Assembly (NCBI RefSeq): GCF_041261265.1
Contig: NZ_JBGCCA010000031.1
Span: 1 to 64,000 of the forward strand
Reading direction: 5' to 3'
DNA: 64,000 nucleotides
Source: Streptacidiphilus sp. MAP12-33
GTDB taxonomy: Bacteria; Actinomycetota; Actinomycetes; Streptomycetales; Streptomycetaceae
A program made the translations under genes and the position numbers. Below are positions 7,518 to 54,315 of this stretch, in pieces. The notes under the pieces are model-generated. The model saw only the letters and a program-made list of their open reading frames with translations, was not told the DNA's origin and ran no database searches. How positions within the stretch are numbered: position 1 is the stretch's first letter; each line of letters starts with the position of its first letter.

Positions 7518-7601
7518 GGCTGTTCCCTTGGATGGACTTCACTGGTGCTGCGAATGAGATGGATGTGCGTTGTGCGTGCGCTGGACGTGCGCTGGCTGTG
7601 A

Positions 7602-36892: not shown

Positions 36893-36960
36893 CAACCAAG
36901 GCACCAAGCGCCGAGGAACCAAGCGCTGAGGAACCGAGCGCCGAGGAACCGAGCACGAGG
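36893..36960. repeat. About 16-bp tandem repeat (gaggaacc[a/g]agcgc[c/t]) of roughly four copies directly after the metallothionein-like ORF
   Basis: Direct reading. Confidence 0.6.
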
Positions 36961-37312: not shown

Positions 37313-37687
37313 GTGGGCGCGCGGATCGGGGCACGCGGAGCGGTCGTGGGCGTGGTGGCACTCGCCCTGGCGCTCGCGAGCGGATGGTGGCTGCACTACC
37401 GGATGACCTACAAGACCTTCGCGTGGTGGTCGGCGCCGCAGAAGCTGTACTACTGCGGCCGGGACTACGACCCGTCCGGCACGGTCGCTGCACTGCCGAA
37501 GGGCGACGGCCGGCTCACCGAGGTGTACCGCTTCGGGTTCGGCTCCTGGCCGGTCTACAAGCAGACATGGACGCCGCAGGCTGCCGGGCCTCACTGCTCG
37601 CCCTCCGGGTCGGGGACGGCGGTCGTGCTCTACCTTGTCCGCGGGACCCACGCGGTCGACCAGTACAACCTCTCCGGTGGCCCGTGA
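37313..37687 (+). CDS. Hypothetical secreted/membrane protein
   Basis: It has a signal-like N-terminus 'GAVVGVVALALALASGWW' and is followed by a strong hairpin. Confidence 0.45.
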   Translation: MGARIGARGAVVGVVALALALASGWWLHYRMTYKTFAWWSAPQKLYYCGRDYDPSGTVAALPKGDGRLTEVYRFGFGSWPVYKQTWTPQAAGPHCSPSGSGTAVVLYLVRGTHAVDQYNLSGGP

Positions 37688-37783: not shown

Positions 37784-38000
37784 TTACTTCTTGCCCTGGG
37801 TCTGGGGGGCCCTATTTTCGACCCTGGTCAGCGGGCTGAGCACCTCAGCTGACCTCCTATTGGGCAGTCGTTGTACGTCGTCATTGGTCGTCCTAGGGCG
37901 ACCCCGGAGGGCCCAGAGAGGGCCCAGCGGTGGACCCCTGACCGATGAAGAGGAGCAGCCCGCGCCCGGCTTGCGGTCGACCCCGGACGGATACTCCCGG

Positions 38001-38912
38001 TCAGCCGGTCGTCCGCTTCATCTCGTCCGCCGCCCCTCCGGATCTTTGCTCCGCGCCACCTTTGCGGAGGTGCTCCAGAGCCTCTCCGACCGCGAGCGAC
38101 TGATCTTTGTCCGCCTCCCAGCGGGCCATCACCTCGGCGGCGGCAAGGGCTTGTTCCGCGGGCAGTCCCTTCGCGCGAAGCGCATCCGCGACCTCAAGCA
38201 TCTCGGGCCCCCACCGCCAAGCACGAGCCGCAATCTTGGGGATGTAGTCGACCTCGGACAGGTAGCTGCCACCTCGCCCTGCCGCGATGTCCAGCAGCTC
38301 ATCCCCTACGCCGTGGGCTTCTGCGAGTCCGTACGCCACCGCAGCAAGCGCCCGGCTCGCCTTCTGGTAGGCGCTGTAGGACAGCTTGAGAGCCGACGCT
38401 TGGCCGTAGTGGTCTGCCGAGAGCGCCTTGACGTGGACGCCCGTGCCCGCGAACAGGCCCTCAATGATCCGAACCGCTCGCATTGGGCCAGCAAGGTAGA
38501 GCCGCGCGGTCTTGGAGCCTCTGGGCGGCGAGCCCACCACCGCGCCATCAATGACCGCCTTGGCCGTGCCGTTCAAGCCCAAGCGCGCGGCGATCCGCGT
38601 CACGCGAACGGGCGAGATCGCGTTGCACTCCACGAAGATCCCTGCGAATCGGAGACTCGCCACGGCTTCGGCCACATCCTCGGCGTGGGCCGGCGGGCAG
38701 ATGCTCAGAACTACGCCGGAGCGCTCCACTAGCTCGCCCAGCGTCCGCACCTCCGTAAGACCTGCGGCGCGCGCCCTGGCCCTGCTGGCTTCGCTCCGCC
38801 CTGCGCTGCACCAAAGCACGGTCGCGCCAGCATCCGCCGCCTGCGCGGCGATGGCCGCGCCCATGCTGCCCGGGTGGAGCACCCCGACCACTGGCTTTAG
38901 AGCGCCGGTCAT
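38001..38912 (-). CDS. NAD(P)-binding dehydrogenase (6-phosphogluconate-dehydrogenase-like Rossmann N-terminus; DUF1932-like)
   Basis: 'MTGALKPVVGVLHPGSMGAAIAAQAADAGATVLW' is a GxGxxG/A Rossmann motif. GC is about 62%. Confidence 0.6.
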   Translation of the reverse strand: MTGALKPVVGVLHPGSMGAAIAAQAADAGATVLWCSAGRSEASRARARAAGLTEVRTLGELVERSGVVLSICPPAHAEDVAEAVASLRFAGIFVECNAISPVRVTRIAARLGLNGTAKAVIDGAVVGSPPRGSKTARLYLAGPMRAVRIIEGLFAGTGVHVKALSADHYGQASALKLSYSAYQKASRALAAVAYGLAEAHGVGDELLDIAAGRGGSYLSEVDYIPKIAARAWRWGPEMLEVADALRAKGLPAEQALAAAEVMARWEADKDQSLAVGEALEHLRKGGAEQRSGGAADEMKRTTG

Positions 38913-39499
38913 GGCAACCACTCGTCCAACAGCGGCACCGATCGCATGGCCTCTGACGAAACGGCATCGTGGATCAGCTCTGCGCTCGCCTGTGGGCTGG
39001 CCTGCTCCGTGTCGATGACGAGGGCCCACCCCGGTTCTCTGTGGTGCTCAAGGAGGTCAAGGCGAGTCTCATCCCACACCTCCAACCGCGCAGGCACGTC
39101 CTGATCCCCCCGACGCTCGCACCGACTCGCCGTCGCCGTTCGCGAGCACCACAGCAAGACCCTGACCCATCCGGCGGGATACTTCTCGACCGCCACGGCT
39201 CCGGCAATCTGTCCCATGTGCAGGATCGGGACGGTGCCGGCGTCGAACATCTCCGTCAGCCCTGCCCGATCGATCCCGTATCGGGCGCCATAACGCTCGT
39301 TGCTGTAGAGCAGCCCGCCGCTGGCGTCCAGCTCCGCCAGATGGTCGGCAGTGGTGAGCCGGTATCCCGTCGTTCTGCCCGGTCCCGCCTTGAGCCGCTG
39401 GAAGAGTCGATAGGCGCTGCTGAGCGAGGACAGTTCGGCGGTAACTGTGTCCTTCCCAGCCCCCGGAGGGCCGTAGAGAATGACGCCCTTGGGCTTCAC
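38909..39499 (-). CDS. P-loop kinase, guanylate-kinase / PhnN (ribose-1,5-bisphosphokinase)-like
   Basis: 'VILYGPPGAGKDTVTAEL' and 'YSNERYGARYGIDRAGLTEMFDAGTVPILHMG' parallel the recalled PhnN/GK pattern 'GPSGSGKDSLLAEL...[29 protein letters not shown]'. Confidence 0.55.
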   Translation of the reverse strand: MKPKGVILYGPPGAGKDTVTAELSSLSSAYRLFQRLKAGPGRTTGYRLTTADHLAELDASGGLLYSNERYGARYGIDRAGLTEMFDAGTVPILHMGQIAGAVAVEKYPAGWVRVLLWCSRTATASRCERRGDQDVPARLEVWDETRLDLLEHHREPGWALVIDTEQASPQASAELIHDAVSSEAMRSVPLLDEWLP

Positions 39500-40500
39500 A
39501 GTCCGCCTCCGCTCAACATGTCGCGTGCCTGGTCGGCAGCAGCGATGGCTGCCCCCAAGCGGTTGTCAACGATGAAGTGGGGCCCCTGCGGGCGTAGTTC
39601 GAGATTGAGTGACGCGAGGTACTCGTCCCACGCTTCCATCTTCCACACGTCGCGTGCAGCGCCTCGGAATTCGATGTACTCGCGCATCGAGTCGGGATCG
39701 CACTCGACCCAGATGCTGGCCACTGCCACGCGCTTGGACTTGCAGCGGTTGTAGAAACGCTGCATCCAGTCCGACTGGGAAAATTCAAGGATGAACGGGG
39801 CGTCCAGGATGGTGGAGATTCCGCAGTCAAGATTGTCCCACGCCGCCTCCATGAGGCACCGATATTCGAGCGGGCGCACTTTTTCCCTGTATAGATCGGA
39901 GCTGCGGTCGTTTGCCTCTCCACCGAGCGCCACCAATAGCTGGTCAACGAGAGGGCGAGTGAGCGAATCCTTGTCCAGGATCGGCCAACCGGTAAGACCA
40001 CCGAGGAACTTCGCATACTCCGACTTGCCGCTACCCGCGAAGCCCCCCACCAGTAGGACCGTGGGGCCGCTAGTCACGTCTCCGCTCGTACGCCTCTGCC
40101 AAGCATCAATAACCCGCTCACGTAGGGCCGACCCATCGACCCCATCTGATCCCTCTTGGATGCTGCCAAGCGCCTCGCGGATGATCTGCGACTGATCGGG
40201 AAGCACATCCGCCGTACGCATGGTCTGCACTGGGGCACCCTCTCCGGGGAGCGCGCGGCGGAAACCAAGCTCAGACTCACTCAGACGGTAAAGCAGGCTG
40301 TAAGCGCGTCGATAGTGCGGGCCGGGGAAAGATGTTCCCTTTTCGTGCGCCCATATCGTTTGGAAATTGGCGGCAACGTTCAGACTGTGCCGCTCACCAA
40401 TCTCGCGAAGCAGTTCCCCGGATTCCTCCAGGGTCAGCCCGTGCTTTTCGCGCGCCTTGCGCAACGTCTCCGGTGTCCAATCTGGATGCTGCCGCGACAT
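39496..40500 (-). CDS. HTH (XRE-like) domain fused to a P-loop NTPase/kinase (AAA_33 / zeta-toxin-like fold)
   Basis: An RBS 'aggagggg' precedes the ATG at 40500. It has an N-terminal 'TPETLRKAREKHGLTLEESGELL' and a Walker A 'LLVGGFAGSGKSEYAKFLG'. GC is about 55%. Confidence 0.55.
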   Translation of the reverse strand: MSRQHPDWTPETLRKAREKHGLTLEESGELLREIGERHSLNVAANFQTIWAHEKGTSFPGPHYRRAYSLLYRLSESELGFRRALPGEGAPVQTMRTADVLPDQSQIIREALGSIQEGSDGVDGSALRERVIDAWQRRTSGDVTSGPTVLLVGGFAGSGKSEYAKFLGGLTGWPILDKDSLTRPLVDQLLVALGGEANDRSSDLYREKVRPLEYRCLMEAAWDNLDCGISTILDAPFILEFSQSDWMQRFYNRCKSKRVAVASIWVECDPDSMREYIEFRGAARDVWKMEAWDEYLASLNLELRPQGPHFIVDNRLGAAIAAADQARDMLSGGGL

Positions 40501-40708
40501 TTCCCCTCCTAGGAAACAGCTCGCTGCGGCGAGTGTAGCCACTCGCCGCAGCGCTGAAAAGTCGTGATAAAGCTCGTGATACTAGACGTGTAAAAGCGGG
40601 CCCCGAAACCTGGATAAGGGACCGTGATACCGACTTTGCCGAATCGGGTGTGAAGTGGAGCACAGCCGAAGGAGGGCAGACAGATGCAGGAGTCAGGGCA
40701 CAAGACAG

Positions 40709-40750
40709 AGGGGTGGCGACGACATGTCGTTGTCGTCGCCACCCCTCTGC
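40709..40750. terminator. Perfect hairpin 'agaggggtggcgacgacatgtcgttgtcgtcgccacccctct' downstream of the GntR gene
   Basis: A 19-bp perfect inverted repeat. Confidence 0.6.
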
Positions 40751-40761
40751 CCCCAAGCGGA

Positions 40762-41112
40762 TCACCGGCCTTCAAGCTCCGCGACCCGCGCCCGGAGATC
40801 CTGCACCTCGGTGCGCAGGGCAGCCACTTCCCCCCGCAGTTGGTCGAGATCGGCCGGCGGCAGGGACTTGGCCGCAATGGCTGCGGCATCGGGAACCAGG
40901 AACGCCGCCTTCCCCTGATGGCTCTTCACGAGGCCAGCTTCACGAAGCTGAGCCACAGCAGAGCGAATCACGGTCACTGAGACGTCGTAGCGCTGCTCAA
41001 GCTGCGACAGCGAGGGAATTCGACCGGCGGCATCGAACTCGCCGGCCGCGATCCTCGCCCGAAGGTCTTCGGACACCTGCTGATAGGCGGGCTTTCCGGA
41101 CCAATCGACCAT
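40762..41112 (-). CDS. GntR-family regulator (HTH only plus a C-terminal coiled coil), Kor-like repressor of AICE-2
   Basis: 'MVDWSGKPAYQQVSEDLRARIAAGEFDAAGRIPSLSQLEQRYDVSVTVIRSAVAQLREAGLVKSHQGKAAF'. Confidence 0.7.
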   Translation of the reverse strand: MVDWSGKPAYQQVSEDLRARIAAGEFDAAGRIPSLSQLEQRYDVSVTVIRSAVAQLREAGLVKSHQGKAAFLVPDAAAIAAKSLPPADLDQLRGEVAALRTEVQDLRARVAELEGR

Positions 41113-41447: not shown

Positions 41448-41592
41448 GGTTCTACAGGTGCCGCCTTGCGCGGCGCCTCTCTTGCTTCGGACGACGGCGA
41501 CTGGTCTCCCGCCAAGGTTCACAGCCGCCCGCGTCCGCTTTCATCGCCCTGAGCGCAGGGCGGCTGGTCTCCCGCCAAGGTTCACAGCCGCC
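41448..41592. repeat. Iteron-like direct repeats: two exact 29-bp copies 'ctggtctcccgccaaggttcacagccgcc' plus a degenerate third
   Basis: Copies lie at about 41503 and about 41562, with a relative at about 41438. They sit upstream of the 41631 gene. Confidence 0.7.
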
Positions 41593-41630
41593 CCGCTCGG
41601 GCCTTCTACCGCTTCAAGGAGAGAAGACCC

Positions 41631-41918
41631 GTGAAGACCATGGTTGCAGGCCACGAGGCCACCTCCGCGGAGGACTTCGTGGCGCTCGCGCTCGGCATCG
41701 ACCGCGAGCTGTTCACCGGCACTCCCGACGAGACGCCGATGGACCGCGAGGCGCGCATGGACGTCGCCTCCGCGATCCTCGCCGAGCTCTACGAGAACGA
41801 CCGGGCCGCGTGGCGCTACGCCCGCGAGCTGCTGCGCACCGCGCCGGTCCCCCTGCGGCGCCGCCCGGCGCCCCGCCCCCGCACCCGTGCCCGCGTCGTT
41901 CGATCGGCGGTGGCGTGA
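41631..41918 (+). CDS. Hypothetical small protein (95 aa)
   Basis: An RBS 'aaggagag' precedes the GTG start. It is translationally coupled (TGATG) to the downstream wbl. Confidence 0.45.
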   Translation: MKTMVAGHEATSAEDFVALALGIDRELFTGTPDETPMDREARMDVASAILAELYENDRAAWRYARELLRTAPVPLRRRPAPRPRTRARVVRSAVA

Positions 41919-42727
41919 TGCCCAAGCGCCGCACGCACCTGCGCCTCGCGACGGTGGCCACCCCGGCCGCGCCGCAGCGTGGGACCTACATCACCTTGAG
42001 CGTCCCCGAGGACACGCGCCTGTCCGGCGCGGTGTGCCGCGAGGTCGCCCCTGACGTGTTCTTCCCCGAGCCCGACGACACCGAGGGCGCGGCGGAGGCC
42101 AAGCGGCTGTGCGCCGCCTGCGCGATCCGGCCGCTGTGCCTGGCGGGCGCGATCGAGCGCGACGAGCGCTACGGCATCTTCGGCGGGCTGAACACCGCCG
42201 AGCGCGACGCCCTGTCCGGCCGCCCCGGCTGCGGGACGCGCAGCGGCTACCGCCGTCACCTCATGGGCGGCGAGCCCGCCTGCGCCGCGTGCCGCGCGGC
42301 CAACACCGCCGCGAGCGCGGCCGACCGGGCCCAGCGCAACGCCAAGCGGCAGCCCTCGCCCGGCTGCGGCACCCGCACCGGCTACCAGCAGCACCGCGCC
42401 GCGGGCGAGCGCGTCTGCGCCGCCTGCCTGGTGGCGAACACCGAGTACGTCTGGGCCCAGACCGGGGCCCGGCGCGAGGACCGTACCCGCACCCAGGCCG
42501 CCCACCGTGAGGCCGCCCGGCAGCGCCGCGCGACCGAAACCGCACAGCAGGAGATGGGCCGGTGCTGCGGCACCCGCCACGGCTACCGCCTGCACCGCCT
42601 CGCGGGTGAGCCCGCCTGCGATGCCTGCCTGGAGGCGAACACCGCCTACAGCCGCGCCTACCGCAAGGCCCACCGCACCACCCCCGCCGCCGCGATCGGC
42701 GCCGACCGGATCGGAGAGGCCGCATGA
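41918..42727 (+). CDS. WhiB-like (Wbl) Fe-S transcription factor with three tandem C-terminal Cys-repeat modules
   Basis: The Wbl core is 'CREVAPDVFFPE...AKRLCAACAIRPLCLAGAIERDERYGIFGG'. It is followed by three repeats of 'CGTRxGYxxHxxxGExxCxACxxAN'. Confidence 0.7.
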   Translation: MPKRRTHLRLATVATPAAPQRGTYITLSVPEDTRLSGAVCREVAPDVFFPEPDDTEGAAEAKRLCAACAIRPLCLAGAIERDERYGIFGGLNTAERDALSGRPGCGTRSGYRRHLMGGEPACAACRAANTAASAADRAQRNAKRQPSPGCGTRTGYQQHRAAGERVCAACLVANTEYVWAQTGARREDRTRTQAAHREAARQRRATETAQQEMGRCCGTRHGYRLHRLAGEPACDACLEANTAYSRAYRKAHRTTPAAAIGADRIGEAA

Positions 42728-42927
42728 GGAACCGTCAGCCCTTCTACGGGCCGCAGCAGCAGACCTCCGGCGGGGACCGGCCGGTGGCCCAGCTCGCCGC
42801 CTGGGGCGCCGCCGCCGGGATGGTCTGGGAGTTCCACCACTACGGCATCCCGGCTCTCGCCGGCGCCGCGGGCGCGTACCTGGTGGTCCTGATCGTGCTC
42901 AAGGCGTGGCTCGGGGGTGCTCGATGA
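42724..42927 (+). CDS. Small membrane protein (67 aa)
   Basis: ATGA-coupled at both ends. It has the TM 'AYLVVLIVLKAWL'. Confidence 0.4.
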   Translation: MRNRQPFYGPQQQTSGGDRPVAQLAAWGAAAGMVWEFHHYGIPALAGAAGAYLVVLIVLKAWLGGAR

Positions 42928-44009
42928 GCCGCGCCCGCGCCGCCGGTTGGGGTCTGGCCGTGCCCGGCCTGCTGGCCCTGGCGATGTCTGCCACGACGTC
43001 GTACGCCTACCTCGGGCAGCGTCTCGGGATCACGTGGACCGTGGAGCGTGGGTTCCTGGCGGTCACCGGGGAGTCCGCGATCCTGGCCCTGTCGGTCTAC
43101 GCGTGGGCCACCCGCACGCGGGGACCGGCCCGCCTCGCGCTGGGCGCGGTGCTGATTCAGGCGCTCCCTGCCTACGCGCTGTCCGGCGGTACGGGCGGTA
43201 CGGTCCGGGTGATCCTCGGGCCGGTGCTGCTGGCCGTGGTGCTCCACCTGCTGCTCGGGCTGGAGGTCCGGGCCCGTGGCGAGCACGCGGCCGGCCTGCT
43301 CGGGCAGGCGCTGCGCGAGGCGCGCGAGCGCCTGACTGCCTGGCTGGGCATCGGCCGCCGCGGGAGCGACTCCGCGGCGATTGCCCGCAGCCGCGCCGCT
43401 GACCGCGCGGTGGCCCTCGCCGATGCCCTTGCGGGCGCCAACGAGGGCGGCTGGAAGGCCCGGAGGCTGTCCGCTCGGCTGGCCGCGGCGATCGACGCTG
43501 CCCAACACGGGCTGCCCGCGGATGAGGCGGCAGCCGCCGAACAGCACGTCGTGGCCCGCGTGGTGCGCCGCCGCTCGGTCAAGGGCTTGGCCCGTATCGA
43601 GCAGCAGCACACCTGGTCCCTCGCCGCCGCACCCCGCGTGGCGCCGGAGGAGCCCGAGCTGCCGGTGTACGTCACGCCCGACCCCGCGCCTCTCCTCCCC
43701 ACGCAGCCGTCTGTAGCGGCACCAGCCACCCGGCCGCGCCGTGCGACGGGGAAGGTCCCGAACGCGGCGCGCACCAACCCGCCGAAGCGCACGGACGCGG
43801 AGGTGCTGGACGAGGCCCGCGCGCTGACCGCGGACTGGCCGGACGAGAAGCTGACCGCGGCCGGCATCCGCAAGGCGGTGCACGTCGCCCAGGACCGGGC
43901 GCGCGAGCTGCGCGAGCAGCTCAAGGCGGAACGCGCCGCCCGCCCCTCTCTCCATTCCGTTCCGGCCCCCGACGAGACGGACGGCATCACGGACGAGGGC
44001 GCGGCCTGA
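42924..44009 (+). CDS. SpdB-like membrane protein (DUF2637-like)
   Basis: It has N-terminal TM helices similar in architecture to the 18509 gene. Confidence 0.55.
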   Translation: MSRARAAGWGLAVPGLLALAMSATTSYAYLGQRLGITWTVERGFLAVTGESAILALSVYAWATRTRGPARLALGAVLIQALPAYALSGGTGGTVRVILGPVLLAVVLHLLLGLEVRARGEHAAGLLGQALREARERLTAWLGIGRRGSDSAAIARSRAADRAVALADALAGANEGGWKARRLSARLAAAIDAAQHGLPADEAAAAEQHVVARVVRRRSVKGLARIEQQHTWSLAAAPRVAPEEPELPVYVTPDPAPLLPTQPSVAAPATRPRRATGKVPNAARTNPPKRTDAEVLDEARALTADWPDEKLTAAGIRKAVHVAQDRARELREQLKAERAARPSLHSVPAPDETDGITDEGAA

Positions 44010-44074
44010 CCGCCGTCCCACTCCGCACAGCAGGGCTTCCCTTTCCTGCTCTGCCTTCCAAGGAGGCATCTGCC

Positions 44075-44302
44075 ATGTCGTGGCACACGAACTCCCACCG
44101 CGACAACAGCCGCCCGGTCGTCCAGCACACCAGCGACGTGTCCGGCGACATCACCACCGTCGTGATCAGCGACAGCACCGGCCCGGTCGTCGCCGGAAGC
44201 GGCTCCGTCACCATCACCTGCGCCTCCGGCACCACCCTGCAGTTCAGCGGCGACGGCTTCACCTTCAGCGCCGGCGACGGCACGTCGAAGCGGGCCCAGT
44301 GA
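44075..44302 (+). CDS. Hypothetical small protein
   Basis: ORF. Confidence 0.35.
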   Translation: MSWHTNSHRDNSRPVVQHTSDVSGDITTVVISDSTGPVVAGSGSVTITCASGTTLQFSGDGFTFSAGDGTSKRAQ

Positions 44303-44667
44303 GGTTCTACGACCCCACCGGCCAACGCTTCGGTATCCCCACCTACCCGTTCCGCCTCGCCCCGGACGGCTACGCCACGCGCCGCCAACTGCGCGCGGAC
44401 GGGCTTCGTCCCGGAGGCCAAGAGGTCGCCGCACAGATCCTGTGGCGCTCGCGCAAGACCCGGGGCGGAGTGCGGGTCGCCTACCTGTACCGGCGCGACC
44501 TCGCCAAGCCCGTCCGGCCGATGACTCCGGGCAAGACCGCCGCCCTCGCCGCGGCGATGCTCGCCCGCCGGACCTGCCCCGTGTGCCGGCACGACGTCGG
44601 CTACGTGGTGCAGAGGTCCGTTGGGGCGTGCGTCCCGTGCCAGGACACCGCCGCGCTCGCGGCCTGA
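44299..44667 (+). CDS. Hypothetical protein with a C-terminal CxxC...CxxC
   Basis: It has a GTG start coupled to the previous stop, and contains 'CPVCRHD...CVPC'. Confidence 0.35.
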   Translation: MRFYDPTGQRFGIPTYPFRLAPDGYATRRQLRADGLRPGGQEVAAQILWRSRKTRGGVRVAYLYRRDLAKPVRPMTPGKTAALAAAMLARRTCPVCRHDVGYVVQRSVGACVPCQDTAALAA

Positions 44668-44714
44668 GGACCAGCGCAACCACCGCTGCCATCGCTTGAG
44701 TTGGAGAACCGACC

Positions 44715-44945
44715 TTGACCGGCAAGAACAACAGCAAGTCCGAGCCCGTGATGCGATTCCAGGGCCTGATGGGCGCCATCGTGACCGTGGGCGTCACCGA
44801 CACGGGCGAGTACGGCGTCTGGTACTGGCACTGCAACGGCTGCATCGACTCCCACGACGACACCAACATGGACCGCCTCCGCGACAGCGCGAACGAGCAC
44901 GCCGCCACCTGCCGCGCTCTGCCGCCCGAGCACGCCGCCGCGTAG
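44715..44945 (+). CDS. Hypothetical small protein
   Basis: ORF. Confidence 0.3.
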   Translation: MTGKNNSKSEPVMRFQGLMGAIVTVGVTDTGEYGVWYWHCNGCIDSHDDTNMDRLRDSANEHAATCRALPPEHAAA

Positions 44946-44990
44946 CGCCCGCACCGGTCCCCTTGCACAGACCGCTACCAGCCGGGGCGC

Positions 44991-47285
44991 GTGACGCCTG
45001 CCAGCAGAGACGCGCCCCGGCCGCCCTTCACCCATCGCTATGAGGAAGGTCCCTCAGTGAACCACGACCCGCTCAACGAGCCCGTGGAGCCCGACGACCT
45101 GCCGGTGTACCTGCCGACCGACACCAGCGGCGGCGAGGTGCTGCCGTTCCCCGACCGCTTCCCCAGGCCCCCGACCGACACCCCCACCACCGGGCCGACC
45201 GACACCCCGCCCCTCGCCCCGACCACGGCCCCGACCGCGCCGGCGGATGAGGACGACGAGGACGACGAGGAGTCGGCGCCCAAGCCCACCGTTCCGGCCG
45301 ACCCGCCGAACCTTGCCCCGCCGGGGATAACCGAGGTCAACCGGCGACCGATCGTGCCGGAGTGGATGCAGAACAAGCCCGACTTCCTCTCCGCGACCGG
45401 CCGGGCGCTTGGGCACTTCGGGTACGCGTTCGCGTTCCACGCGATCCGCTGCCCGTACTACACCCTCCGACTGCTCACCACCGCCCCGCGCGGGACGGTC
45501 CGGTTCATCTCTGCGACCAACCGTTGGGTGTGGGACAGCGAGGCGGCCCCGCTACGCGCCCACGCCGTCCTGACGGAGGACGCGGGCCAGTACATGACTC
45601 TCGTCCGCTCGCGTGACCGCAAGGTCCGACTCAGGGTCGCCCTCATGCTCGTGGCGTCCGTGTTCGGGACCGTGTTCGCCCTCACGACCTACGTCATGGC
45701 GCCGGCCGCCCTGTGGGCCCTGGCGAGCTCCGCGCTGATGGTGCTGGGGTGGCGCGGCCGACCCGAGGACAAGCCCATCATCGGCCCCGCGGTCATCAAG
45801 TCGGAGTTGGAGAAGCTCACCACCTCCATCGTGCTGCGGGCGCTGGGTGCGATCGGGAACGACCGGATCAACCGGGCGCTGCTCAAGGGCGGCGAGGGCG
45901 TCAAGTTCACCTCGGAGATCACCCGCGACGGGCCCGGCTACCGCGCGGACATCGACCTGCCCTACGGCGTGACGCCCGAGGACATCATGGAGAAGCGCAA
46001 GGCCCTGGCCTCGGGGCTTCGGCGCAAGCTCGGGTGCGTGTGGCCGGGCCCCAACCCGGACTCCCACGAGGGCGCGTTGATCCTGTGGGTGGGCGACAAG
46101 CCCATGAACGAGACGAAGAAGCCCGCGTGGCCGCTGCTCAAGGCCGGTGTGGTGGACCTGTTCAAGCCGGTCGTGTTCGGCAACGACCAGCGCATGCGCG
46201 AGGTCTGCGTGTCGCTGATGTTCGCCGCCGTGTGCGTCGGCTCCATCCCGCGCATGGGCAAGACGTTCCTGATGCGGCTTCTGCTGCTGATCTGCGCACT
46301 GGACCCGCGGGCGCAGATCTACGCGTTCGACTTCAAGGGCACCGGCGACTTCTCCCCGCTGGAGCCGGTCTGCCACGCCTACCGCGCCGGCGACGACGAG
46401 GACGACATCGCCTACGTCGTGGCCTGCCTCAAGGAACTGCGCGAGGAGATGCGGCGCCGCACCAAGGTGATCCGCTCCCTGCCCAAGAGCGTGTGCCCGG
46501 AGTCCAAGGTCACCCCGGAACTCGCCAACCGCAAGGAACTGGGGCTGCACCCGATCGGGGTGGCGCTGGACGAGTGCCAGATCGCGTTCGAGCACCCCAC
46601 CTACGGCGCGGAGATTGAGGCCATCTGCACCGACCTGACCAAGCGCGGGCCGGCGCTGGGCATCATCCCGATGTTCGGCACGCAGCGCCCCGACGCCAAG
46701 TCGCTGCCCACCGGCATCAGCTCGAACCTGGTGCTCAAGTTCTGCCTCAAGGTCCTCGGTCAGCCCGCCAACGACATGGTGCTGGGCACGTCGATGTACA
46801 AGGCGGGCATCCGCGCCACCATGTTCTCCCGCTCCGACAAGGGCATCGCGTGGATGGCCGGCGAGGGCGACGACCCGCAGATCGTCTGCTCCGCCTATGT
46901 GGACGCCCTTGCCGCCGAGCAGGTCGTGATCCGCGCCCACAAGATGCGCGAGCAGTACGGCAACATCACCGGCTACGCCGCCGGTGTGGAGCCGGAGACG
47001 CTCGTGGCGCCGACGTACGACCTGCTCTCCGACGTCCTCGCCGTTGTGCCGGTGGACGAGGAGAAGGTGTGGAACGAGAAGGTTGCCGGCCGCCTCGCCG
47101 AGCTGCGCCCGGAGGTCTACGGCGGCTGGAAGGGCGAGACGGTCACCACGAACCTCAAGCCGCACGGCGTGCCGGTGCAGGACGTCTGGGGCACCCCGAC
47201 CGGTGGCGGCAAGGGCACCACCCGCCGCGGCATCGCCCGAGCCGACGTCCTCAAGGCACACACGGAGCGTGACCGCAGCGCGTAG
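44991..47285 (+). CDS. FtsK/SpoIIIE-family conjugal DNA translocase (TraB-like)
   Basis: It has a Walker A 'GSIPRMGKTFLMR', a Walker B 'GVALDECQ' and N-terminal TM segments. A possible GTG start lies at 45057. Confidence 0.8.
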   Translation: MTPASRDAPRPPFTHRYEEGPSVNHDPLNEPVEPDDLPVYLPTDTSGGEVLPFPDRFPRPPTDTPTTGPTDTPPLAPTTAPTAPADEDDEDDEESAPKPTVPADPPNLAPPGITEVNRRPIVPEWMQNKPDFLSATGRALGHFGYAFAFHAIRCPYYTLRLLTTAPRGTVRFISATNRWVWDSEAAPLRAHAVLTEDAGQYMTLVRSRDRKVRLRVALMLVASVFGTVFALTTYVMAPAALWALASSALMVLGWRGRPEDKPIIGPAVIKSELEKLTTSIVLRALGAIGNDRINRALLKGGEGVKFTSEITRDGPGYRADIDLPYGVTPEDIMEKRKALASGLRRKLGCVWPGPNPDSHEGALILWVGDKPMNETKKPAWPLLKAGVVDLFKPVVFGNDQRMREVCVSLMFAAVCVGSIPRMGKTFLMRLLLLICALDPRAQIYAFDFKGTGDFSPLEPVCHAYRAGDDEDDIAYVVACLKELREEMRRRTKVIRSLPKSVCPESKVTPELANRKELGLHPIGVALDECQIAFEHPTYGAEIEAICTDLTKRGPALGIIPMFGTQRPDAKSLPTGISSNLVLKFCLKVLGQPANDMVLGTSMYKAGIRATMFSRSDKGIAWMAGEGDDPQIVCSAYVDALAAEQVVIRAHKMREQYGNITGYAAGVEPETLVAPTYDLLSDVLAVVPVDEEKVWNEKVAGRLAELRPEVYGGWKGETVTTNLKPHGVPVQDVWGTPTGGGKGTTRRGIARADVLKAHTERDRSA

Positions 47286-47443
47286 CGGACACCGCTCGCA
47301 CCGGTGCTAGACCTAGCGGCCCGCGCTGCTAGGTCTAGCACCCCTACTAGCACTTCATTTGGGCTCTGGCCAGGGACCTCGTAGCTAGCAGCCCACCTGC
47401 GAAAACACCCCGAACCCCGGTTTCGAGCCCCTGGGAGACCCCC

Positions 47444-47686
47444 GTGCTCACCGCTATAGCCTGCCTACTCATCGTTACGCTCGGTTACGGCATCGTGTGT
47501 GCGGCGCAGCCGTTCGGGCGCTGCCGCCGGTGCCGCGGCTTCGGCTTCCACTTCAAGACCGACCGCCGCGGCCGGATGCGCCGCGGCAAGGACTGTCGCC
47601 GCTGCAAGGCCACCGGCTACCGCATCCGCACCGGCCGCCACCTGTACAACCTCGCCCTGCGCCTCTACCGCGAGGGCACCCGATGA
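47444..47686 (+). CDS. Small Cys/Arg-rich membrane protein
   Basis: ORF with 'CRRCRGFGFHF...CRRCKATGY'. Confidence 0.4.
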   Translation: MLTAIACLLIVTLGYGIVCAAQPFGRCRRCRGFGFHFKTDRRGRMRRGKDCRRCKATGYRIRTGRHLYNLALRLYREGTR

Positions 47687-47937
47687 CCGTCCGGGCCGCC
47701 CGCGCCGCAACGCTCGCCCTCACCGCCGCGCTGGCCGGCGCGTGCGCCGCGCCAGAAGCCGACGTCTCCGGGACCGTCATCGACCGCTACCCGTGGCACA
47801 ACCCCGCCACCCACAGCGAAGAACTGCGGCTCACGATCCGCCTCGCCGACGGCAGCACCATGTCGTTCCGGGTCTACGACCCCACCTACGGCAAGTGCTT
47901 CCGCGGCTCCCACTACCCCGCCTGCAAGAACCGCTGA
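47683..47937 (+). CDS. Small putative lipoprotein
   Basis: ATGA-coupled. Contains 'LAGACAAPEAD'. Confidence 0.4.
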   Translation: MTVRAARAATLALTAALAGACAAPEADVSGTVIDRYPWHNPATHSEELRLTIRLADGSTMSFRVYDPTYGKCFRGSHYPACKNR

Positions 47938-47954
47938 GCGACAGGAGAGCCATC

Positions 47955-48149
47955 GTGTTCGTCACCATCTCGCTCGTCGTCCTGTTCGGCGCCGCCGCCC
48001 TGTTCATGATCCGCAACCGGGCGCTGGCGATCAGCGGCGGGCTCGTCGCCGCCCTCTTCGGCTTCTACCTCGCCCGCACCGGCGCCGCCCCGACCATCGG
48101 CCACGCCGTGACCGCGGTCATCCACTACCTCAACAACGTCGCCCACTAG
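47955..48149 (+). CDS. Small membrane protein
   Basis: An RBS 'acaggagag' precedes the GTG start. It has two TM segments. Confidence 0.4.
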   Translation: MFVTISLVVLFGAAALFMIRNRALAISGGLVAALFGFYLARTGAAPTIGHAVTAVIHYLNNVAH

Positions 48150-48169
48150 CCCCGGAAGGAACCCCCGCC

Positions 48170-48679
48170 GTGGACATCAGCCCGAACGCGCCGGACCTCC
48201 GGCCCGCCCCGCTCGTCCTCCCGGCCGCGCCGATGGAGCCCACCCGCTACTCGCCGGTGCTCCCCGCCGACCTCATCGACCGCACCCCGGTCCTCGCCCA
48301 CCAGCTCGCCATGTTGATGGCTGCCCAGCAGTACGCCGCCGCCCCCGCCCCGCCGCCCGCACCGCCGGTCGAGACGCGGGTGTCGGGGCGGGCCAAGGGC
48401 GCCGCCCTCGTCGCGGTGGCCGGCGGGACCGGCGTCGGCGCCGCGGCAACCGGCGTCGGCTACGCCGCCGGACTGATCGCATCCGCAGGGAGTGGACTCA
48501 TGACCGCAGCCATCGCGCTGGCCATCGCCACCGGCTCCATCTTCGCCCTGACCCTGCTGCTCCGCGGCACCCTCGCCCCCCGCGGCGGCAGGGACAGCGG
48601 CACCACCTACGTCACGCAGAACGTCACCGCGACCGGCCTGTTCGGCCGCGCCCACGGCACCGTCAACAACTACCGCTGA
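48170..48679 (+). CDS. Spd-like membrane protein
   Basis: It has a Pro-rich N-terminus and C-terminal TMs. Confidence 0.45.
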   Translation: MDISPNAPDLRPAPLVLPAAPMEPTRYSPVLPADLIDRTPVLAHQLAMLMAAQQYAAAPAPPPAPPVETRVSGRAKGAALVAVAGGTGVGAAATGVGYAAGLIASAGSGLMTAAIALAIATGSIFALTLLLRGTLAPRGGRDSGTTYVTQNVTATGLFGRAHGTVNNYR

Positions 48680-48695
48680 ACAGGGGGAAGGCCGC

Positions 48696-48944
48696 ATGAG
48701 CTGGGCGAGCAAGGACAACCCCGGCATCTACGTGTTCGCGCCGTCCCCCGAGAGCTACCCGTGGTCGATGCGTGCGCCCTCCCCGACGCCGAGGGCGCAC
48801 TACGTGTGCCGCTGCGGCCAAACCAACGCCGCCGTGGGCGAGGACGCCGTCAAGGCGCTGATCAGTGAGTACCTCACCCACATGAAGGCGACGCACCCGG
48901 ACCTGCCCGAGGTCCCCGGCGGGCAGGCCAAGCGCGCCGCCTGA
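48696..48944 (+). CDS. Small hypothetical protein
   Basis: ORF. Confidence 0.35.
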   Translation: MSWASKDNPGIYVFAPSPESYPWSMRAPSPTPRAHYVCRCGQTNAAVGEDAVKALISEYLTHMKATHPDLPEVPGGQAKRAA

Positions 48945-49048
48945 TTCACATCTGCATCAACTCCAGTACACAGCAGCCAAATTGAAGATCCGTGCTGCGC
49001 GCCGAAGCCCAGAAAGGCCCCTTTGAGGGCCTGAGAGGACTCTGCGGG

Positions 49049-49897
49049 ATGGAATCCACCTTCGACCTGATGAACGTCGCTCTGGCGGTCGCACAACGCG
49101 GTCGCCCGGTCCTTCCGCTCGCCGTGGGCAAGCTTCCCTTCGGAAACTGCGGCGCCTGCCAGAAGAGCCGCTGCGGGGACCGTCCGAACATGCTCAAGCC
49201 CGGCCCGTGTCGGTGTCCGCGCCCATGCCATGGGTGGGCCGCGGCCACCACCGACCCGCGCGTCATCACCTCGCCCCACTGGGCTGCGGCCTGGCGGCGC
49301 GCGGAGGCCCTGGCCTACCACCCCGGGGGCGCCGGGCTGACCGTGCTGGACCTCGACAACGCCGACGCGGTCGCGTGGGCCAGGGAGCATCTACCGGCCA
49401 CGCTGACCGTGGCCACGACCCGCGGCGAGCACTGGCTCTACCGCGGGGCGATGCGCTCCCGCAACAGCGTGCGGCCCGGCATAGACATCAAGTCCACGAT
49501 GGCCTACGCCCGCTGGCTCGGTCCCGGCATCGGTGCCATAGCGGCGCTCCCCGACGCGGTGCGTGCGTTGGCCGCGAAGGAGCCCGCCCCGGTCCGGCCG
49601 GCGGCTCAGGTCAACGTCGTGCCCCCGGGCGCCGCTGGCAGGCAGTGCCGTCACCGCACGCCCGCCTATCTTGACCGTGGCATCGACATGGCGGAGCAGC
49701 GCATCACCGAGGCCCGCGAAGCGATCCACAACACCGTGTACCGGACGTTCCTCGCCGTGTTGTCGGCCCACGGCCGGTGCGGCTGCCTCACCGACGCCCA
49801 CGTCGCGCGCCTATTCACCGCCGCGCAGGCCAAGGGCGAATCGCCGCGGCATTGCACCGACGCATGGGCCAACGCCCGCAGCAAGTTGGGACTGTAG
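49049..49897 (+). CDS. Bifunctional DNA primase/polymerase (prim-pol) N-terminal-domain protein, the replication initiator of AICE-2
   Basis: 'LAVAQRGRPVLPLAVGKLPFGNCGACQ...GAGLTVLDLDN' is the prim-pol fold signature. Confidence 0.6.
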   Translation: MESTFDLMNVALAVAQRGRPVLPLAVGKLPFGNCGACQKSRCGDRPNMLKPGPCRCPRPCHGWAAATTDPRVITSPHWAAAWRRAEALAYHPGGAGLTVLDLDNADAVAWAREHLPATLTVATTRGEHWLYRGAMRSRNSVRPGIDIKSTMAYARWLGPGIGAIAALPDAVRALAAKEPAPVRPAAQVNVVPPGAAGRQCRHRTPAYLDRGIDMAEQRITEAREAIHNTVYRTFLAVLSAHGRCGCLTDAHVARLFTAAQAKGESPRHCTDAWANARSKLGL

Positions 49898-49899
49898 CC

Positions 49900-51375: not shown

Positions 51376-51534
51376 CCTGCAACTGAACGCCCCGAAAGGC
51401 AAGAGGAGCACCACCGCGCCCCGGGGTGCTCCTCTTGCTATTCGGCGCAGCGCGCCGCCCGTGGTCGCGCCGCGAAGCGGCTCCTTCTTCTCGTTCTGAC
51501 GCGCACCACACCACAACGACAACCCCATCTCTTG

Positions 51535-51790
51535 TCCTAAGAGAAGAGATCCTGCGTCACCCGCGTCACCCGAGGTCGAAAAGGGCGCCTGAGCTGCCAC
51601 TACAGCGGTGACGCAGCCGCCGACGGCTGCGTCATCCTGCGTCACCTGCGTCACCACCGGGTGACGCAGACCCGTGCCGGTGACGCACCCCCGAAACCTC
51701 TGCGTCACCCAAAGCCGCAGGCCAGAAGCACGGATGACGCGGATGACGCGGTGACGCAGAACGCGGCACCTCGGACAGACATGGCGTCGA
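51535..51790. repeat. Dense array of about 12 copies of the GTGACGCAG / CTGCGTCAC motif in both orientations
   Basis: Direct reading, between the rep genes and xis. Confidence 0.8.
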
Positions 51791-51812
51791 GAACCCAGAA
51801 ACCGAGGACTCA

Positions 51813-52058
51813 ATGAGCCGAATACGTTCCGCTCAATCCGACCAGGACACCGCGCTCCACAGCGTCCTGCCCGATAGGTACCTCACGACCGACGACATCG
51901 CCGAAATCTTCGACGTACCCATCGAAACGGTCTACCAGTGGCGCAGAAAACGCACGGGTCCCCCCGGCTTCCGCATCGGCAAGCACGTGCGTTACGACCC
52001 CGCTGAAGTGAGGGCCTACGTCGCTCAGCTCAAGAACGTCGACCGCGCCGCGGCTTGA
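51813..52058 (+). CDS. xis: Excisionase / AlpA-like HTH DNA-binding protein
   Basis: 'LTTDDIAEIFDVPIETVYQWRRKRTGPPGFRIGKHVRYDPAEVRAYV'. Confidence 0.7.
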   Translation: MSRIRSAQSDQDTALHSVLPDRYLTTDDIAEIFDVPIETVYQWRRKRTGPPGFRIGKHVRYDPAEVRAYVAQLKNVDRAAA

Positions 52059-52134
52059 CGCAGCCTCTCGCACCACCAGGGGTGGCCGTCGGACGGCCAC
52101 CCCTTCTCAACACTGAGAAGGGACTCCGCCTCCA

Positions 52135-53370
52135 TTGGCAGGGAGCATCCAAGACCGTTGGTACAAGACCATCACCGACGCCGAGGGGAAGACGGTTCGC
52201 CTCAAGACCGACCGCTACGGGAAGGGCATGCGCTACCGGGCCCGCTACTTCACGCCCGATGGAGAGCGAAAGACCAAGTCCTTCCCTGACGGGCAGAAAC
52301 GCCTCGCCGAGCAGTGGCTGAGCAACGTCACTGCGGATGTTGCTCGTGGCGACTTCATCGACCCCAACGCATCCCGCGTGACGTTCCAGGCGTTCGCTGA
52401 GAAATGGCTCGAAACCCAAAGCGGCGACCCGAACACCAGGGCATCCATGGTGTCGCAACTCACACTGCATGCCTTTCCTCGCATCGGCCCGCGTCCGCTT
52501 GGGTCGTTCCAGCCAAGTCACATTCGCGAGTTTGTGACGCAACTCGAAGCGTCCGGCATGTCCGGCTCGTACGCCCGCGTCATCTTCTCCAACGTTCGCG
52601 CTGTGCTCTCAGCGGCCGTGGAGGATGGGTGCCTTCGGCGGAATCCCTGCAACTCGCGGACGGTCACCCTGCCGGCCATGGGCATGCGGCGAGTCGTGCC
52701 ATGGGAGCCTGACCGCGTCTTCACGGTGCGTGCCGCCATGGTCGAACGCTTCCGGCCCATGGTCGACGTGGGTGCCGGATGCGGCCTGCGGCAAGGCGAG
52801 ATTCTTGGCCTTTCCGTCGATGACATCGACTTCGACAGCGGCACCTTGCACGTCGTACAACAGCTGAAGCTGAGCCTGAGCAAGCCCGTGTTCGCGCCCC
52901 CGAAGGGAGGAAAGCTCCGCGACGTACCGTTGCCCGACCCCGTGGCGGAGTCGCTGCGCGCGCACATCGAGCGGTTCCCGCCCGTAGAGATCAAGCTCCC
53001 GTGGATGCGGGCGAACGGCCAGCCGGTGACCCGTCGGCTCATCTTTACAGGCCCCAACGGCGGGCACGTCTGGCGGACGTCGTTGAACGAAGACCATTGG
53101 AAGCCCGCACTCGCGCAGGCGGGCGTCATCCCGAAGGCCAAGAGTCGCGAGCACGCTGCCGCCCGCGAGCACGGCATGCACGCGCTGCGGCACTTCTATG
53201 CCTCGGTGCTGCTGGACGCGGGGGAGAGCATCAAGGCCCTCGCCGAGTACCTCGGCCACTCCGACCCGGGGCTGACGCTGAAGGTGTACGCACACCTCAT
53301 GCCGAGCAGCCGGGACCGCGCCCGCAAGGCCCTCGAACGCGTCCTCCAGCCCCAGGGGTCGGAGGACTGA
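52135..53370 (+). CDS. int: Tyrosine integrase of AICE-2
   Basis: It has an N-terminal arm-binding 'RLKTDRYGKGMRYRARYFTPDGE' and a catalytic 'HALRHFYASVLLDAGESIKALAEYLGHSDPGLTLKVYAHL' (R..HxxR..Y). Confidence 0.9.
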   Translation: MAGSIQDRWYKTITDAEGKTVRLKTDRYGKGMRYRARYFTPDGERKTKSFPDGQKRLAEQWLSNVTADVARGDFIDPNASRVTFQAFAEKWLETQSGDPNTRASMVSQLTLHAFPRIGPRPLGSFQPSHIREFVTQLEASGMSGSYARVIFSNVRAVLSAAVEDGCLRRNPCNSRTVTLPAMGMRRVVPWEPDRVFTVRAAMVERFRPMVDVGAGCGLRQGEILGLSVDDIDFDSGTLHVVQQLKLSLSKPVFAPPKGGKLRDVPLPDPVAESLRAHIERFPPVEIKLPWMRANGQPVTRRLIFTGPNGGHVWRTSLNEDHWKPALAQAGVIPKAKSREHAAAREHGMHALRHFYASVLLDAGESIKALAEYLGHSDPGLTLKVYAHLMPSSRDRARKALERVLQPQGSED

Positions 53371-53394
53371 GGGCCCAGAGTGGTCCCCGATCAC

Positions 53395-53437
53395 AAAAAA
53401 GCCTCCCACCCGCGCCATTCGCGCAGGTGGGAGGCAT
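53395..53437. terminator. Intrinsic terminator of gpmA (minus strand)
   Basis: 'aaaaaagcctcccacccgcgccattcgcgcaggtgggaggc'. Confidence 0.65.
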
Positions 53438-53448
53438 GATCATGTTTT

Positions 53449-54210
53449 CTACTTCTTCTTGCCCTGGTTCTTGACCGCCTCGATCGCGGCGGCGGCGGCC
53501 TCCGGGTCGAGGTAGCGGCCGCCCTTGGTGAGGGGCTTGAAGTCGGCGTCGAGCTCGTAGACGAGCGGGATGCCGGTGGGGATGTTGAGCCCGGCGATGG
53601 CCTCGTCGGAGATGTCGTCGAGGTGCTTGACCAGCGCGCGCAGCGAGTTGCCGTGGGCGGTGACCAGGACCGTGCGGCCGGCGGCCAGATCCGGGACGAT
53701 CGCGTCGTACCAGTACGGCAGCATGCGGTCGACGACGTCCTTGAGGCACTCGGTCTGCGGGCGGATGTCGCCCGGCAGCTCGGCGTAGCGGAGGTCGTGG
53801 GCCTGCGAGTACTCGGCGTCGTCGGCGAGCGCGGGCGGCGGGGTGTCGTAGGACCGGCGCCAGAGCATGAACTGCTCCTCGCCGAACTCGGCGAGGGTCT
53901 GCGCCTTGTCCTTGCCCTGGAGCGCGCCGTAGTGGCGCTCGTTCAGGCGCCAGCTGCGGTGGACCGGGATCCAGTGGCGGTCCGCGCGGTCCAGCGCGAT
54001 CTGTGCGGTGCGGATGGCGCGGCGCAGCAGGGAGGTGTGCAGCACGTCGGGCAGCAGGCCCTCGGCGGCGAGCAGCTCGCCGCCGCGTACGGCCTCCTTC
54101 TCGCCCTTGGCGTTCAGGTCGACGTCGACCCAGCCGGTGAACAGGTTCTTCTCGTTCCACTGGCTCTCGCCGTGGCGGAGCAGCACAAGACGGTAGGGAG
54201 CATCAGCCAT
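53449..54210 (-). CDS. gpmA: 2,3-bisphosphoglycerate-dependent phosphoglycerate mutase
   Basis: '[26 protein letters not shown]' and 'HGNSLRAL' are present. The start is at the ATG 54210. Confidence 0.9.
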
Positions 54211-54315
54211 GGCCCCGAGCCTAGTCCAGGTCGTAATCCGCTGGCGCCGCCGTCTCAGCGGCGAGTAATGTCCCCGATGCTGATCTGACACTTACCTGCC
54301 GAGGTCGGAGCACCA

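Follow-up and report, generated by a model that had tools for sequence, protein, structure and literature searches.

Results

Genes of the cassette

A 64,000-nucleotide stretch of the Streptacidiphilus sp. MAP12-33 genome (contig NZ_JBGCCA010000031.1, positions 1 to 64,000 of the forward strand; hereafter the window) carries a cassette of three genes, designated g1, g2 and g3, at one end of AICE-2, an integrative and conjugative element of actinomycetes (AICE). All three genes lie on the minus strand. g1 (39496..40500) encodes a 334-aa protein in which a Cro/C1 (XRE)-type helix-turn-helix (HTH) domain is followed by an AAA_33 P-loop kinase domain, g2 (38909..39499) encodes a 196-aa P-loop kinase of the guanylate kinase (GK) fold, and g3 (38001..38912) encodes a 303-aa NAD(P)-dependent oxidoreductase with a DUF1932 C-terminal domain. 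A previous sequence-only reading of this DNA had placed three co-directional genes at 38001-40542, coupled by ATGA overlaps and with a GC content of 55-62%. Inspection of open reading frames (ORFs) recovered the three minus-strand genes, but several details changed. Homologue alignments and the sequence itself place the start of g1 at ATG 40500, in front of which lies a strong ribosome-binding site (AGGAGGGG, 40503-40510, minus strand); GTG 40542, upstream of the conserved g1 N-terminus, is not the start codon, and the span was shortened accordingly. Similarly, g3 starts at ATG 38912, the same Met being used in homologues, and not at the upstream GTG 39029. Overlaps of 4 nt are present at both junctions, but only that between g2 and g3 is ATGA, whereas the g1/g2 overlap is GTGA and the start codon of g2 is GTG.

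The GC content was 61.2% for g1, 65.8% for g2, 69.1% for g3 and 65.2% for the interval 38001-40542, so that only g1 falls within the range given earlier. For comparison, it was 70.7% for the whole window and 70.8% for the AICE backbone (41500-53400), and GC at third codon positions was 71-79% in the cassette versus 98% in the neighboring host phoU gene. The GC dip across the cassette is thus real, but shallower than first claimed. The GntR gene upstream of the cassette (GC 66%) is within the same low-GC patch.

Distribution and composition of the cassette

One genome per species was scanned for relatives of g1, and the neighborhoods of the 80 best loci were analyzed in detail. Relatives of g1 were found in at least 553 species genomes. 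The earlier reading would have been undermined had the three genes not occurred together elsewhere; instead, the trio holds in other species, with g2 adjacent to g1 in 79 of the 80 best loci and g3 within 2.6 kb in 78. A fourth gene, which codes for a HAD-IA hydrolase (haloacid dehalogenase superfamily), adjoined g3 in 66 loci out of the 76 that had sufficient sequence. Its product is closest, among named models, to YjjG-type noncanonical pyrimidine nucleotidases (85 bits, below the cut-off). The unit therefore usually consists of four genes: g1, g2, g3 and a YjjG-like HAD phosphatase. The HAD gene is missing from the copy in the window and from 8 other loci, and g1 is intact in all of these.

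Three arrangements of the unit were observed (arrowheads indicate gene orientation): g1>g2>g3> <HAD, g1>g2> <g3<HAD and g1>g2>HAD>g3>. The occurrence of three gene orders and orientations suggests selection on the composition of the unit and not mere synteny. A Streptosporangium AICE retains g1 and g2 only, so that the two kinases form the core of the unit. Several additional genes were considered as cassette members and rejected, and the HAD gene was the last conserved component. ORFs next to the HAD gene in two loci (L087 and L088) were not conserved in other loci, and LigT and HTH genes upstream of the cassette in locus L081 were restricted to that locus. Genes for a GGDEF protein of about 215 aa, belonging to the operon that runs divergently from the GntR gene, were detected in 18 related AICE backbones (L087, 8152-8799; L088, 6858-7523; and 16 others) but not in the window. 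These proteins hint at cyclic-dinucleotide signaling on related AICEs.

Across loci, g1 proteins are 71-77% identical, versus 26-66% for the neighboring GntR proteins and 26-71% for Tra. Because g1 stays similar while GntR and Tra diverge, the cassette moves between backbones, and it travels with its own promoter region (see below) between element backbones that are unrelated. Streptomyces plasmids carry it as well: it was found on 70 of them, in each case with transfer genes (WhiB, DUF2637, TraA-like) as neighbors, and on one of these, pSV2, it separates the transfer region from the replication region. A gene for a GntR-type winged-HTH protein was present on the same strand, no more than 2.6 kb upstream, in 60 of the 80 loci. 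No full-length match to g1 was detected in 50,697 phage records, in which two sequences of about 30% identity covered only the kinase domain and at most about half of g1. In addition, no PHROGs family matched g1, g2 or g3, and the HAD partner in pSV2 matched phrog_8468. In the absence of a full-length phage match and of a PHROG for g1-g3, a phage origin of the cassette was rejected.

pSV2 (NC_004934, locus L084) has an extra standalone AAA_33/zeta-like kinase of 236 aa at 7064-7774, between the GntR gene and g1. It matches the Zeta_toxin model above the cut-off (E = 4.5e-09), and a similar gene is present in locus L072. In databases, cassette proteins are named AAA family ATPase, guanylate kinase (g2), DUF1932 or, in the case of some g3 homologues, 6-phosphogluconate dehydrogenase.

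g1, a kinase fused to a DNA-binding domain

The description of g1 as an XRE-like HTH fused to an AAA_33 P-loop kinase was correct for both domains. The HTH domain (approximately residues 1-80) has the five-helix Cro/C1 fold and is connected by a helical linker to the kinase domain (approximately residues 145-330), in which the Walker A motif, a catalytic Asp and lid Arg residues are kept among homologues. The motif ILDKDSLTR is present in g1 and presumably resembles the catalytic motif of zeta/PezT. The best match for the kinase domain was 2RHM, itself uncharacterized; gluconokinases were among the structural neighbors of g1, and no member of the P-loop kinase group stood out.

An exhaustive HMMER search yielded 894 representatives of the g1 kinase-domain family. 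When 51 long representatives were analyzed with Pfam, 19 contained HTH_31, 13 HTH_3 and 4 GntR domains, and the remaining fusions included MarR, Crp, IclR and LexA domains. Thus, this kinase domain has repeatedly been fused to at least four classes of DNA-binding domain. Two of the GntR-HTH::kinase fusions are encoded on plasmids, one of Amycolatopsis (NZ_CP091379; locus L085, 6743-8508; kinase domain 47% identical to that of g1) and one of Rhodococcus (NZ_CP023721; locus L086, 6761-8121; 39% identical). The Rhodococcus fusion gene is followed by a g2 homologue (45% identity) and then by a reverse transcriptase gene. The Amycolatopsis fusion gene is followed by a gene for an NAD(P) oxidoreductase, and a NUDIX gene is 5 kb away; this oxidoreductase was examined as a g3 homologue, proved to be an unrelated protein and was left out of the g3 count.

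The fusion of the kinase domain to varied DNA-binding domains, together with the operator-like array described below, which is private to the cassette, suggests that g1 is more than a plain kinase and is better described as a DNA-binding enzyme with a second role in transcription regulation. Enzymes that double as regulators are known: NadR combines an HTH domain with NMNAT and P-loop ribosylnicotinamide kinase domains, and PutA and ROK repressors are further examples. As in these proteins, a DNA-binding domain in g1 is fused to a small-molecule enzyme domain that appears catalytically intact, and g1 heads the operon that it presumably controls; NadR in particular also has its HTH at the N-terminus, combined there with a nucleoside kinase of the P-loop type. 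However, NadR gave no sequence or structure match among the top PDB hits of g1, and the g1 family differs from all three in swapping its HTH class and in residing on mobile elements rather than in a core metabolic regulon. It also differs from the AAA_33/zeta-toxin/CPT/polynucleotide-kinase group, in which neither the HTH fusion nor a fixed GK-fold kinase partner is found.

A conserved promoter region with an operator-like array

About 170 nt upstream of g1 are conserved across species, whereas the DNA flanking this leader is not. In the window, the promoter/operator-like leader occupies 40501..40640 (minus strand) and contains TATCACG-type repeats with 5' ends at 40629, 40593 (TTACACGT), 40581 and 40569, the last three spaced exactly 12 nt. 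Across species, invariant TATCAC/TTACAC/CTACAC motifs with 12-nt spacing are separated by variable spacers, and the leader core TTTTCAACATCCGCTTACACA is kept even in a plasmid clade of 54% identity. Within the 64-kb window, TATCACG on this strand was detected in the leader of the cassette only. In addition, a perfect palindrome of 13+13 nt (40523-40552, minus strand; GCTGCGGCGAGTG gcta CACTCGCCGCAGC) surrounds an invariant CTACACTCGC core at 40538, immediately in front of the ribosome-binding site of g1. The palindrome is kept in other species with altered arms (CTAGTCG...CGACTAG versus CTACTCG...TGAGTAG) and could be a pair of operator half-sites or a leader hairpin.

The leader gave no Rfam match other than spurious sub-threshold miRNA models, and no consensus RNA structure was found (RNAalifold, -2.9 kcal/mol). 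A riboswitch or leader RNA was rejected on these grounds, and the short invariant motifs fit protein-binding DNA. We infer that the TATCACG array is a candidate operator bound by the HTH of g1; if bound in this way, the cassette would be self-contained and autoregulated. Just past the stop codon of the GntR gene, a GC-rich hairpin (GGGGTGGCGACGAC...GTCGTCGCCACCCC; 40703..40752, minus strand), which is also picked up by spurious miRNA models, probably ends the GntR transcript, in which case the cassette would have its own promoter.

g2, a guanylate-kinase-fold enzyme, probably for another substrate

g2 had been compared to guanylate kinase and PhnN. The fold was borne out: with an AlphaFold2 model of pLDDT 90, all of the top 50 Foldseek hits in PDB were guanylate kinases (TM 0.63-0.77, typically about 0.72; E ~1e-12), although at only 16-24% identity. 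The protein scored, however, far below the cut-offs of the models that define these enzymes, including the Gmk equivalogs NF011325 (26.4 bits, cut-off 263) and TIGR03263 (21.5 bits, cut-off 160) and the PhnN model TIGR02322 (15.2 bits, cut-off 156); there are no phn genes nearby. The cut-offs of the chloramphenicol phosphotransferase (CPT) models PF07931 and NF033114 were also missed, and g1 and g2 of the window gave no CPT match at all.

With Gmk and PhnN, g2 shares the whole fold, a GxxGxGK(D/S)T P-loop and lid arginines. It differs in being borne by mobile elements and always paired with g1, and in its recognition motif. In g2 homologues, the P-loop and five basic residues (R35, K37, R42, R47 and R69) are invariant, and an invariant, very basic RLKAGPGRTTGYR stands where the guanine/phosphate-recognition motif of Gmk would be. 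Taking S37, T40-R41, R44, Y53, E72, Y81, T83 and D101 as the GMP-recognition positions of the mouse enzyme, a HMMER alignment of g2 to 1LVG keeps only the Tyr positions, with TTRxPR, E72, T83 and D101 replaced, the columns being uncertain at such low identity. The missed Gmk and PhnN cut-offs and the replacement of the recognition motif by RLKAGPGRTTGYR argue that g2 is a GK-fold kinase for a substrate other than GMP, and this substrate is probably already phosphorylated.

g3, a DUF1932 oxidoreductase

The proposal of an N-terminal Rossmann domain of the 6-phosphogluconate dehydrogenase (6PGDH) type in g3 was upheld, as NAD_binding_2 (1.1e-05; 26 bits, cut-off 21) and F420_oxidored (6.3e-06) were both detected above their cut-offs. 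The C-terminal domain matched DUF1932 (2.7e-13). Invariant features of the family are GxLHPGxMG, GRS (typical of NADP binding) and the lysine of an ASALK motif; this residue, K176, is invariant in 17 homologues and is the catalytic Lys. With these features, g3 belongs to the 6PGDH/beta-hydroxyacid dehydrogenase superfamily, but it is not a true 6PGDH, as DUF1932 replaces the 6PGDH C-terminal domain. Its only sequence relative in PDB was MTH1747 (1I36; E = 1.5e-10 over 237 residues), and the aligned part includes the Rossmann domain as well as the lysine of ASA(L/I)K. MTH1747 comes from structural genomics, and the match assigns g3 a fold but no chemistry.

Relation to known systems

Each protein of the cassette can be assigned to a known superfamily, and none passes the curated threshold for Gmk, PhnN, CPT or Zeta toxin. 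No match to g1, g2 or g3 was found in PADLOC-DB v2 at E <= 0.1. The absence of a named resistance, toxin or defense system, noted in the sequence-only reading, therefore stands. That reading had also pointed to a chloramphenicol or aminoglycoside phosphotransferase module as an outcome that would overturn it; besides the failure to reach the CPT cut-off, no APH domain (PF01636) was detected in g1, g2 or g3 at E <= 0.1, and all cassette kinases are of the P-loop type. No description of the module was found in literature on AICE cargo, pSV2, defense in Actinobacteria, DUF1932 or AAA_33 proteins with an HTH.

The carrier element

The location of the cassette on a second AICE in the window was confirmed. 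AICE-2 is 15.7 kb long as measured between its candidate attachment sites, and the cassette occupies its int-distal end, downstream of a gene for a KorSA-like short GntR regulator (40762..41112, minus strand; Pfam GntR, 2.7e-14), which we regard as a neighbor rather than as an established member of the unit. Divergent from the GntR gene are genes for a WhiB-domain protein, an FtsK-like Tra (a weak FtsK_SpoIIIE match, 17.8 bits), Prim-Pol, Xis (51813-52058; HTH_17, 1.3e-11) and a tyrosine integrase (52135..53370, plus strand; Phage_integrase, 1.2e-15), a gene set characteristic of AICEs. The integrase gene marks the other end of the element.

A repeat finder detected no long attachment-site repeats, and local alignment recovered only one short match, in which 16 of 17 nt are identical. 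The candidate attL core (CTTCTTGCCCTGGGTCT, 37787..37803) is about 200 bp past the g3 stop codon, and the candidate attR core (CTTCTTGCCCTGGTTCT, 53455..53471) follows the integrase gene by about 85 bp and lies within the 3' end of His_Phos_1, a gene of the host (53449-54291, minus strand). The alignment score was 29, compared with a mean of 19.9 (sd 2.6, maximum 27) in 200 shuffles (z ~3.5). Tentatively, AICE-2 may end at this 17-nt repeat, and it appears to be inserted in the 3' end of the His_Phos_1 gene and not in a tRNA gene. A His_Phos_1 gene is likewise located close to the element of L081, a cassette locus unrelated to this one.

Some other features of the window were observed. Past its WhiB domain, the AICE-2 WhiB-domain protein (41900-42727, plus strand) contains three copies of about 27 aa of CGTRxGYxxHxxxGExxCxACxxANTxY, which looks like a repeated zinc-ribbon-like module; the underlying DNA forms 113-nt repeats (42228-42676). 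Outside AICE-2, three tandem 15-nt repeats (AGGAACCRAGCGCYG-like; 36899-36954) occupy a GC-rich stretch between phoU and the ORF at 37313-37687, which is small and secreted-looking. The other element in the window, AICE-1, is AICE-like. Its NUDIX gene (14750-15196, minus strand) lies beside a divergent GntR/UTRA regulator gene (15226-16008, plus strand), and its integrase ORF (21879-23045) adjoins tRNA-Thr (23140-23216).

Discussion

A possible counterpart of the Nudix modules of AICEs

Our analysis describes a mobile cassette, usually of four genes, that is headed by an HTH-kinase and kept together in many species. As a tentative explanation, to which we give somewhat less than an even chance, we suggest that it is an autoregulated accessory cassette of AICEs and plasmids that combines enzyme and regulator in g1, acts on a nucleotide-like metabolite and takes the place of the Nudix (Pif-type) modules. 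According to this proposal, the TATCACG repeats spaced 12 nt apart in the cassette promoter would be bound by g1, whose kinase domain would make DNA binding responsive to substrate level. The substrate of g1 would be a metabolite resembling a nucleoside or a sugar acid, phosphorylated at a hydroxyl group. g2, whose pocket is strongly basic, would add a further phosphate to the phosphorylated product, and g3 would oxidize or reduce a hydroxyl or keto group in an NADP-linked reaction. Where present, the HAD phosphatase would remove a phosphate, so that the amount of a nucleotide-derived compound would be governed by the cassette. The nucleotide theme is suggested by the guanylate kinase fold of g2 and by the similarity of the HAD partner to pyrimidine nucleotidases. 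Sequential phosphorylation and oxidation of a nucleotide-like or sugar-phosphate-like molecule, as envisaged in the sequence-only reading, remains plausible and fits a nucleotidase-like HAD. The role of the cassette would be in the control of conjugal transfer, or in immunity to it, with the cassette filling a slot by the Kor/TraR-type GntR repressor that is occupied in other AICEs by Nudix (Pif) or Mdp-Nudix-Xre modules.

This element-centered role is the weakest step of our explanation and is argued by analogy. It is favored because the slot beside the Kor/TraR-type GntR gene is kept across unrelated backbones, and because AICE-1 has a NUDIX gene by its GntR gene, whereas AICE-2 and most cassette loci do not: a Nudix box (regular-expression search) was absent from AICE-2 and the cassette, and just 5 of the 84 cassette loci had one within 10 kb. 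In the review by te Poele, by contrast, one is carried by 13 of 20 AICEs (PMC2440964). A further reason to favor such a role is that conjugal immunity in pSAM2 is mediated by the Nudix protein Pif together with KorSA, and that an Mdp-Nudix-Xre cluster is present in other AICEs (PMC2440964, PMC3218068). The cassette resembles Pif/KorSA, and likewise the Mdp(HD)-Nudix-Xre cluster found in pMEA100/pSE211-type elements, in that accessory enzymes of nucleotide type are encoded next to a GntR or XRE regulator of the carrier AICE and in that it is widespread among AICEs. In the window, the Nudix version in AICE-1 and the kinase cassette in AICE-2 occupy an equivalent place. The differences are also clear. 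The cassette lacks Nudix and HD domains and has kinases, an oxidoreductase and a HAD phosphatase instead; it would build and remove phosphate esters, whereas Nudix modules cleave pyrophosphate bonds; and its regulator and an enzyme are one polypeptide.

Several observations weigh against this explanation. The TATCACG array is absent from the tra, rep and int promoters of AICE-2; because it occurs only in the cassette promoter, g1 is not an obvious direct controller of transfer genes. In 20 of the 80 loci, there is no upstream GntR gene. Backbone type, the 10-kb flanks and the reliance on a regular expression all confound the Nudix comparison. The proposed role rests on position and on the analogy to Pif, and the behavior of the cassette as portable cargo fits defense or resistance equally well.

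Alternative functions

The main rival is anti-phage or anti-plasmid defense, in which the enzymes would deplete, modify or make a nucleotide-like molecule upon infection; we consider this unlikely. One possible logic is that kinase, phosphatase and reductase together make a deoxygenated, chain-terminating nucleoside, with the HTH of g1 repressing the genes until a trigger is received. A GC content below that of the host, a patchy distribution, a dedicated regulator, carriage as portable cargo on both AICEs and plasmids, and a private operator array that points to a self-contained unit are all consistent with defense, as are the reverse transcriptase gene adjoining the Rhodococcus homologue and an Abi gene 7 kb from the cassette in pSV2. 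Moreover, validated Streptomyces defense systems are built from metabolic enzymes (bioRxiv 10.1101/2025.01.08.631966). Nevertheless, g1, g2 and g3 match neither PADLOC nor PHROGs, and kinase-based systems of this make-up are absent from the papers on defense that were consulted. The neighboring genes serve conjugation and regulation and do not form defense islands, and the cassette encodes no nuclease, NADase, pore or other obvious effector. A related idea, to which we give a small but appreciable chance, is that the cassette is a new element-encoded, small-molecule immunity or exclusion system directed against incoming conjugative DNA or phage. In such a system, the HTH-kinase would serve as both sensor and kinase of a nucleoside-like compound, and the GK-fold kinase, oxidoreductase and HAD would then make or destroy a signaling or chain-terminating nucleotide. 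This chemistry would resemble the cordycepin route, which involves a kinase, a phosphohydrolase and a reductase.

It is improbable that the cassette provides inducible resistance to an antibiotic or antimetabolite by phosphorylation in the style of CPT, Gar or TmrB, with g1 as drug sensor and kinase and the other enzymes processing the product. Resistance genes do occur among AICE cargo (PMC9513070), some g2 homologues match CPT weakly, and the extra kinase of pSV2 weakly matches the Gar gentamicin-resistance model; but the CPT and Gar scores are far below cut-offs (for example, 16.8 versus 250 bits), and no CPT match for the window proteins and no APH-type domain were found. In addition, a phosphatase within the unit would undo an inactivating phosphorylation, and drug-specific resistance is not usually conserved so widely and uniformly on transfer backbones. 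An addiction module similar to toxin-antitoxin systems, in which g1 would be a zeta-like toxic kinase with an HTH autoregulator and its partner enzymes would reverse or buffer the product, is very improbable. The plasmid and AICE location, a HAD phosphatase that could antagonize the kinase, and a weak P-loop match of g1 to Zeta_toxin, a model reached at E < 0.001 by 15 of the 51 long kinase-family members, are in line with this idea. However, the match of g1 is confined to the P-loop (14 bits, cut-off 22.3), and upstream of g1, whose neighbors are the GntR gene and g2, no ORF for a small epsilon-type antitoxin was found. Intact g1 persists in the window and 8 other loci without the would-be antagonist HAD, and a make-up of four enzymes is atypical of toxin-antitoxin systems. 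Finally, the NCBI names of g2 and some g3 homologues, and the gluconokinases among the structural neighbors of g1, could be taken to indicate ordinary metabolic cargo, that is, a spare guanylate kinase plus a 6-phosphogluconate/gluconate-type kinase and dehydrogenase pair with no element-specific role. We regard this as highly unlikely, given a g2 score of 26 versus 263 bits on the Gmk equivalog, the replacement in g2 of the positions that we take to recognize GMP (HMMER alignment to mouse GMPK), the lack of a 6PGDH C-terminal domain in g3, which matches only DUF1932 and MTH1747, and the confinement of the genes to mobile elements and their fusion to a DNA-binding domain.

Implications

This analysis corrects the database names guanylate kinase and 6-phosphogluconate dehydrogenase, which are misleading for the cassette proteins. 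It also defines a family of putative transcription factors whose effector domain is a P-loop kinase and provides a precise operator candidate for it. If the element-centered role is wrong, the cassette would be a candidate for a new mechanism of defense or resistance built from metabolic enzymes. Gene flow in Streptomyces depends mainly on AICEs and TraB-type plasmids, and a four-enzyme cassette located by the transfer repressor in hundreds of species offers a testable handle on what triggers or blocks transfer.

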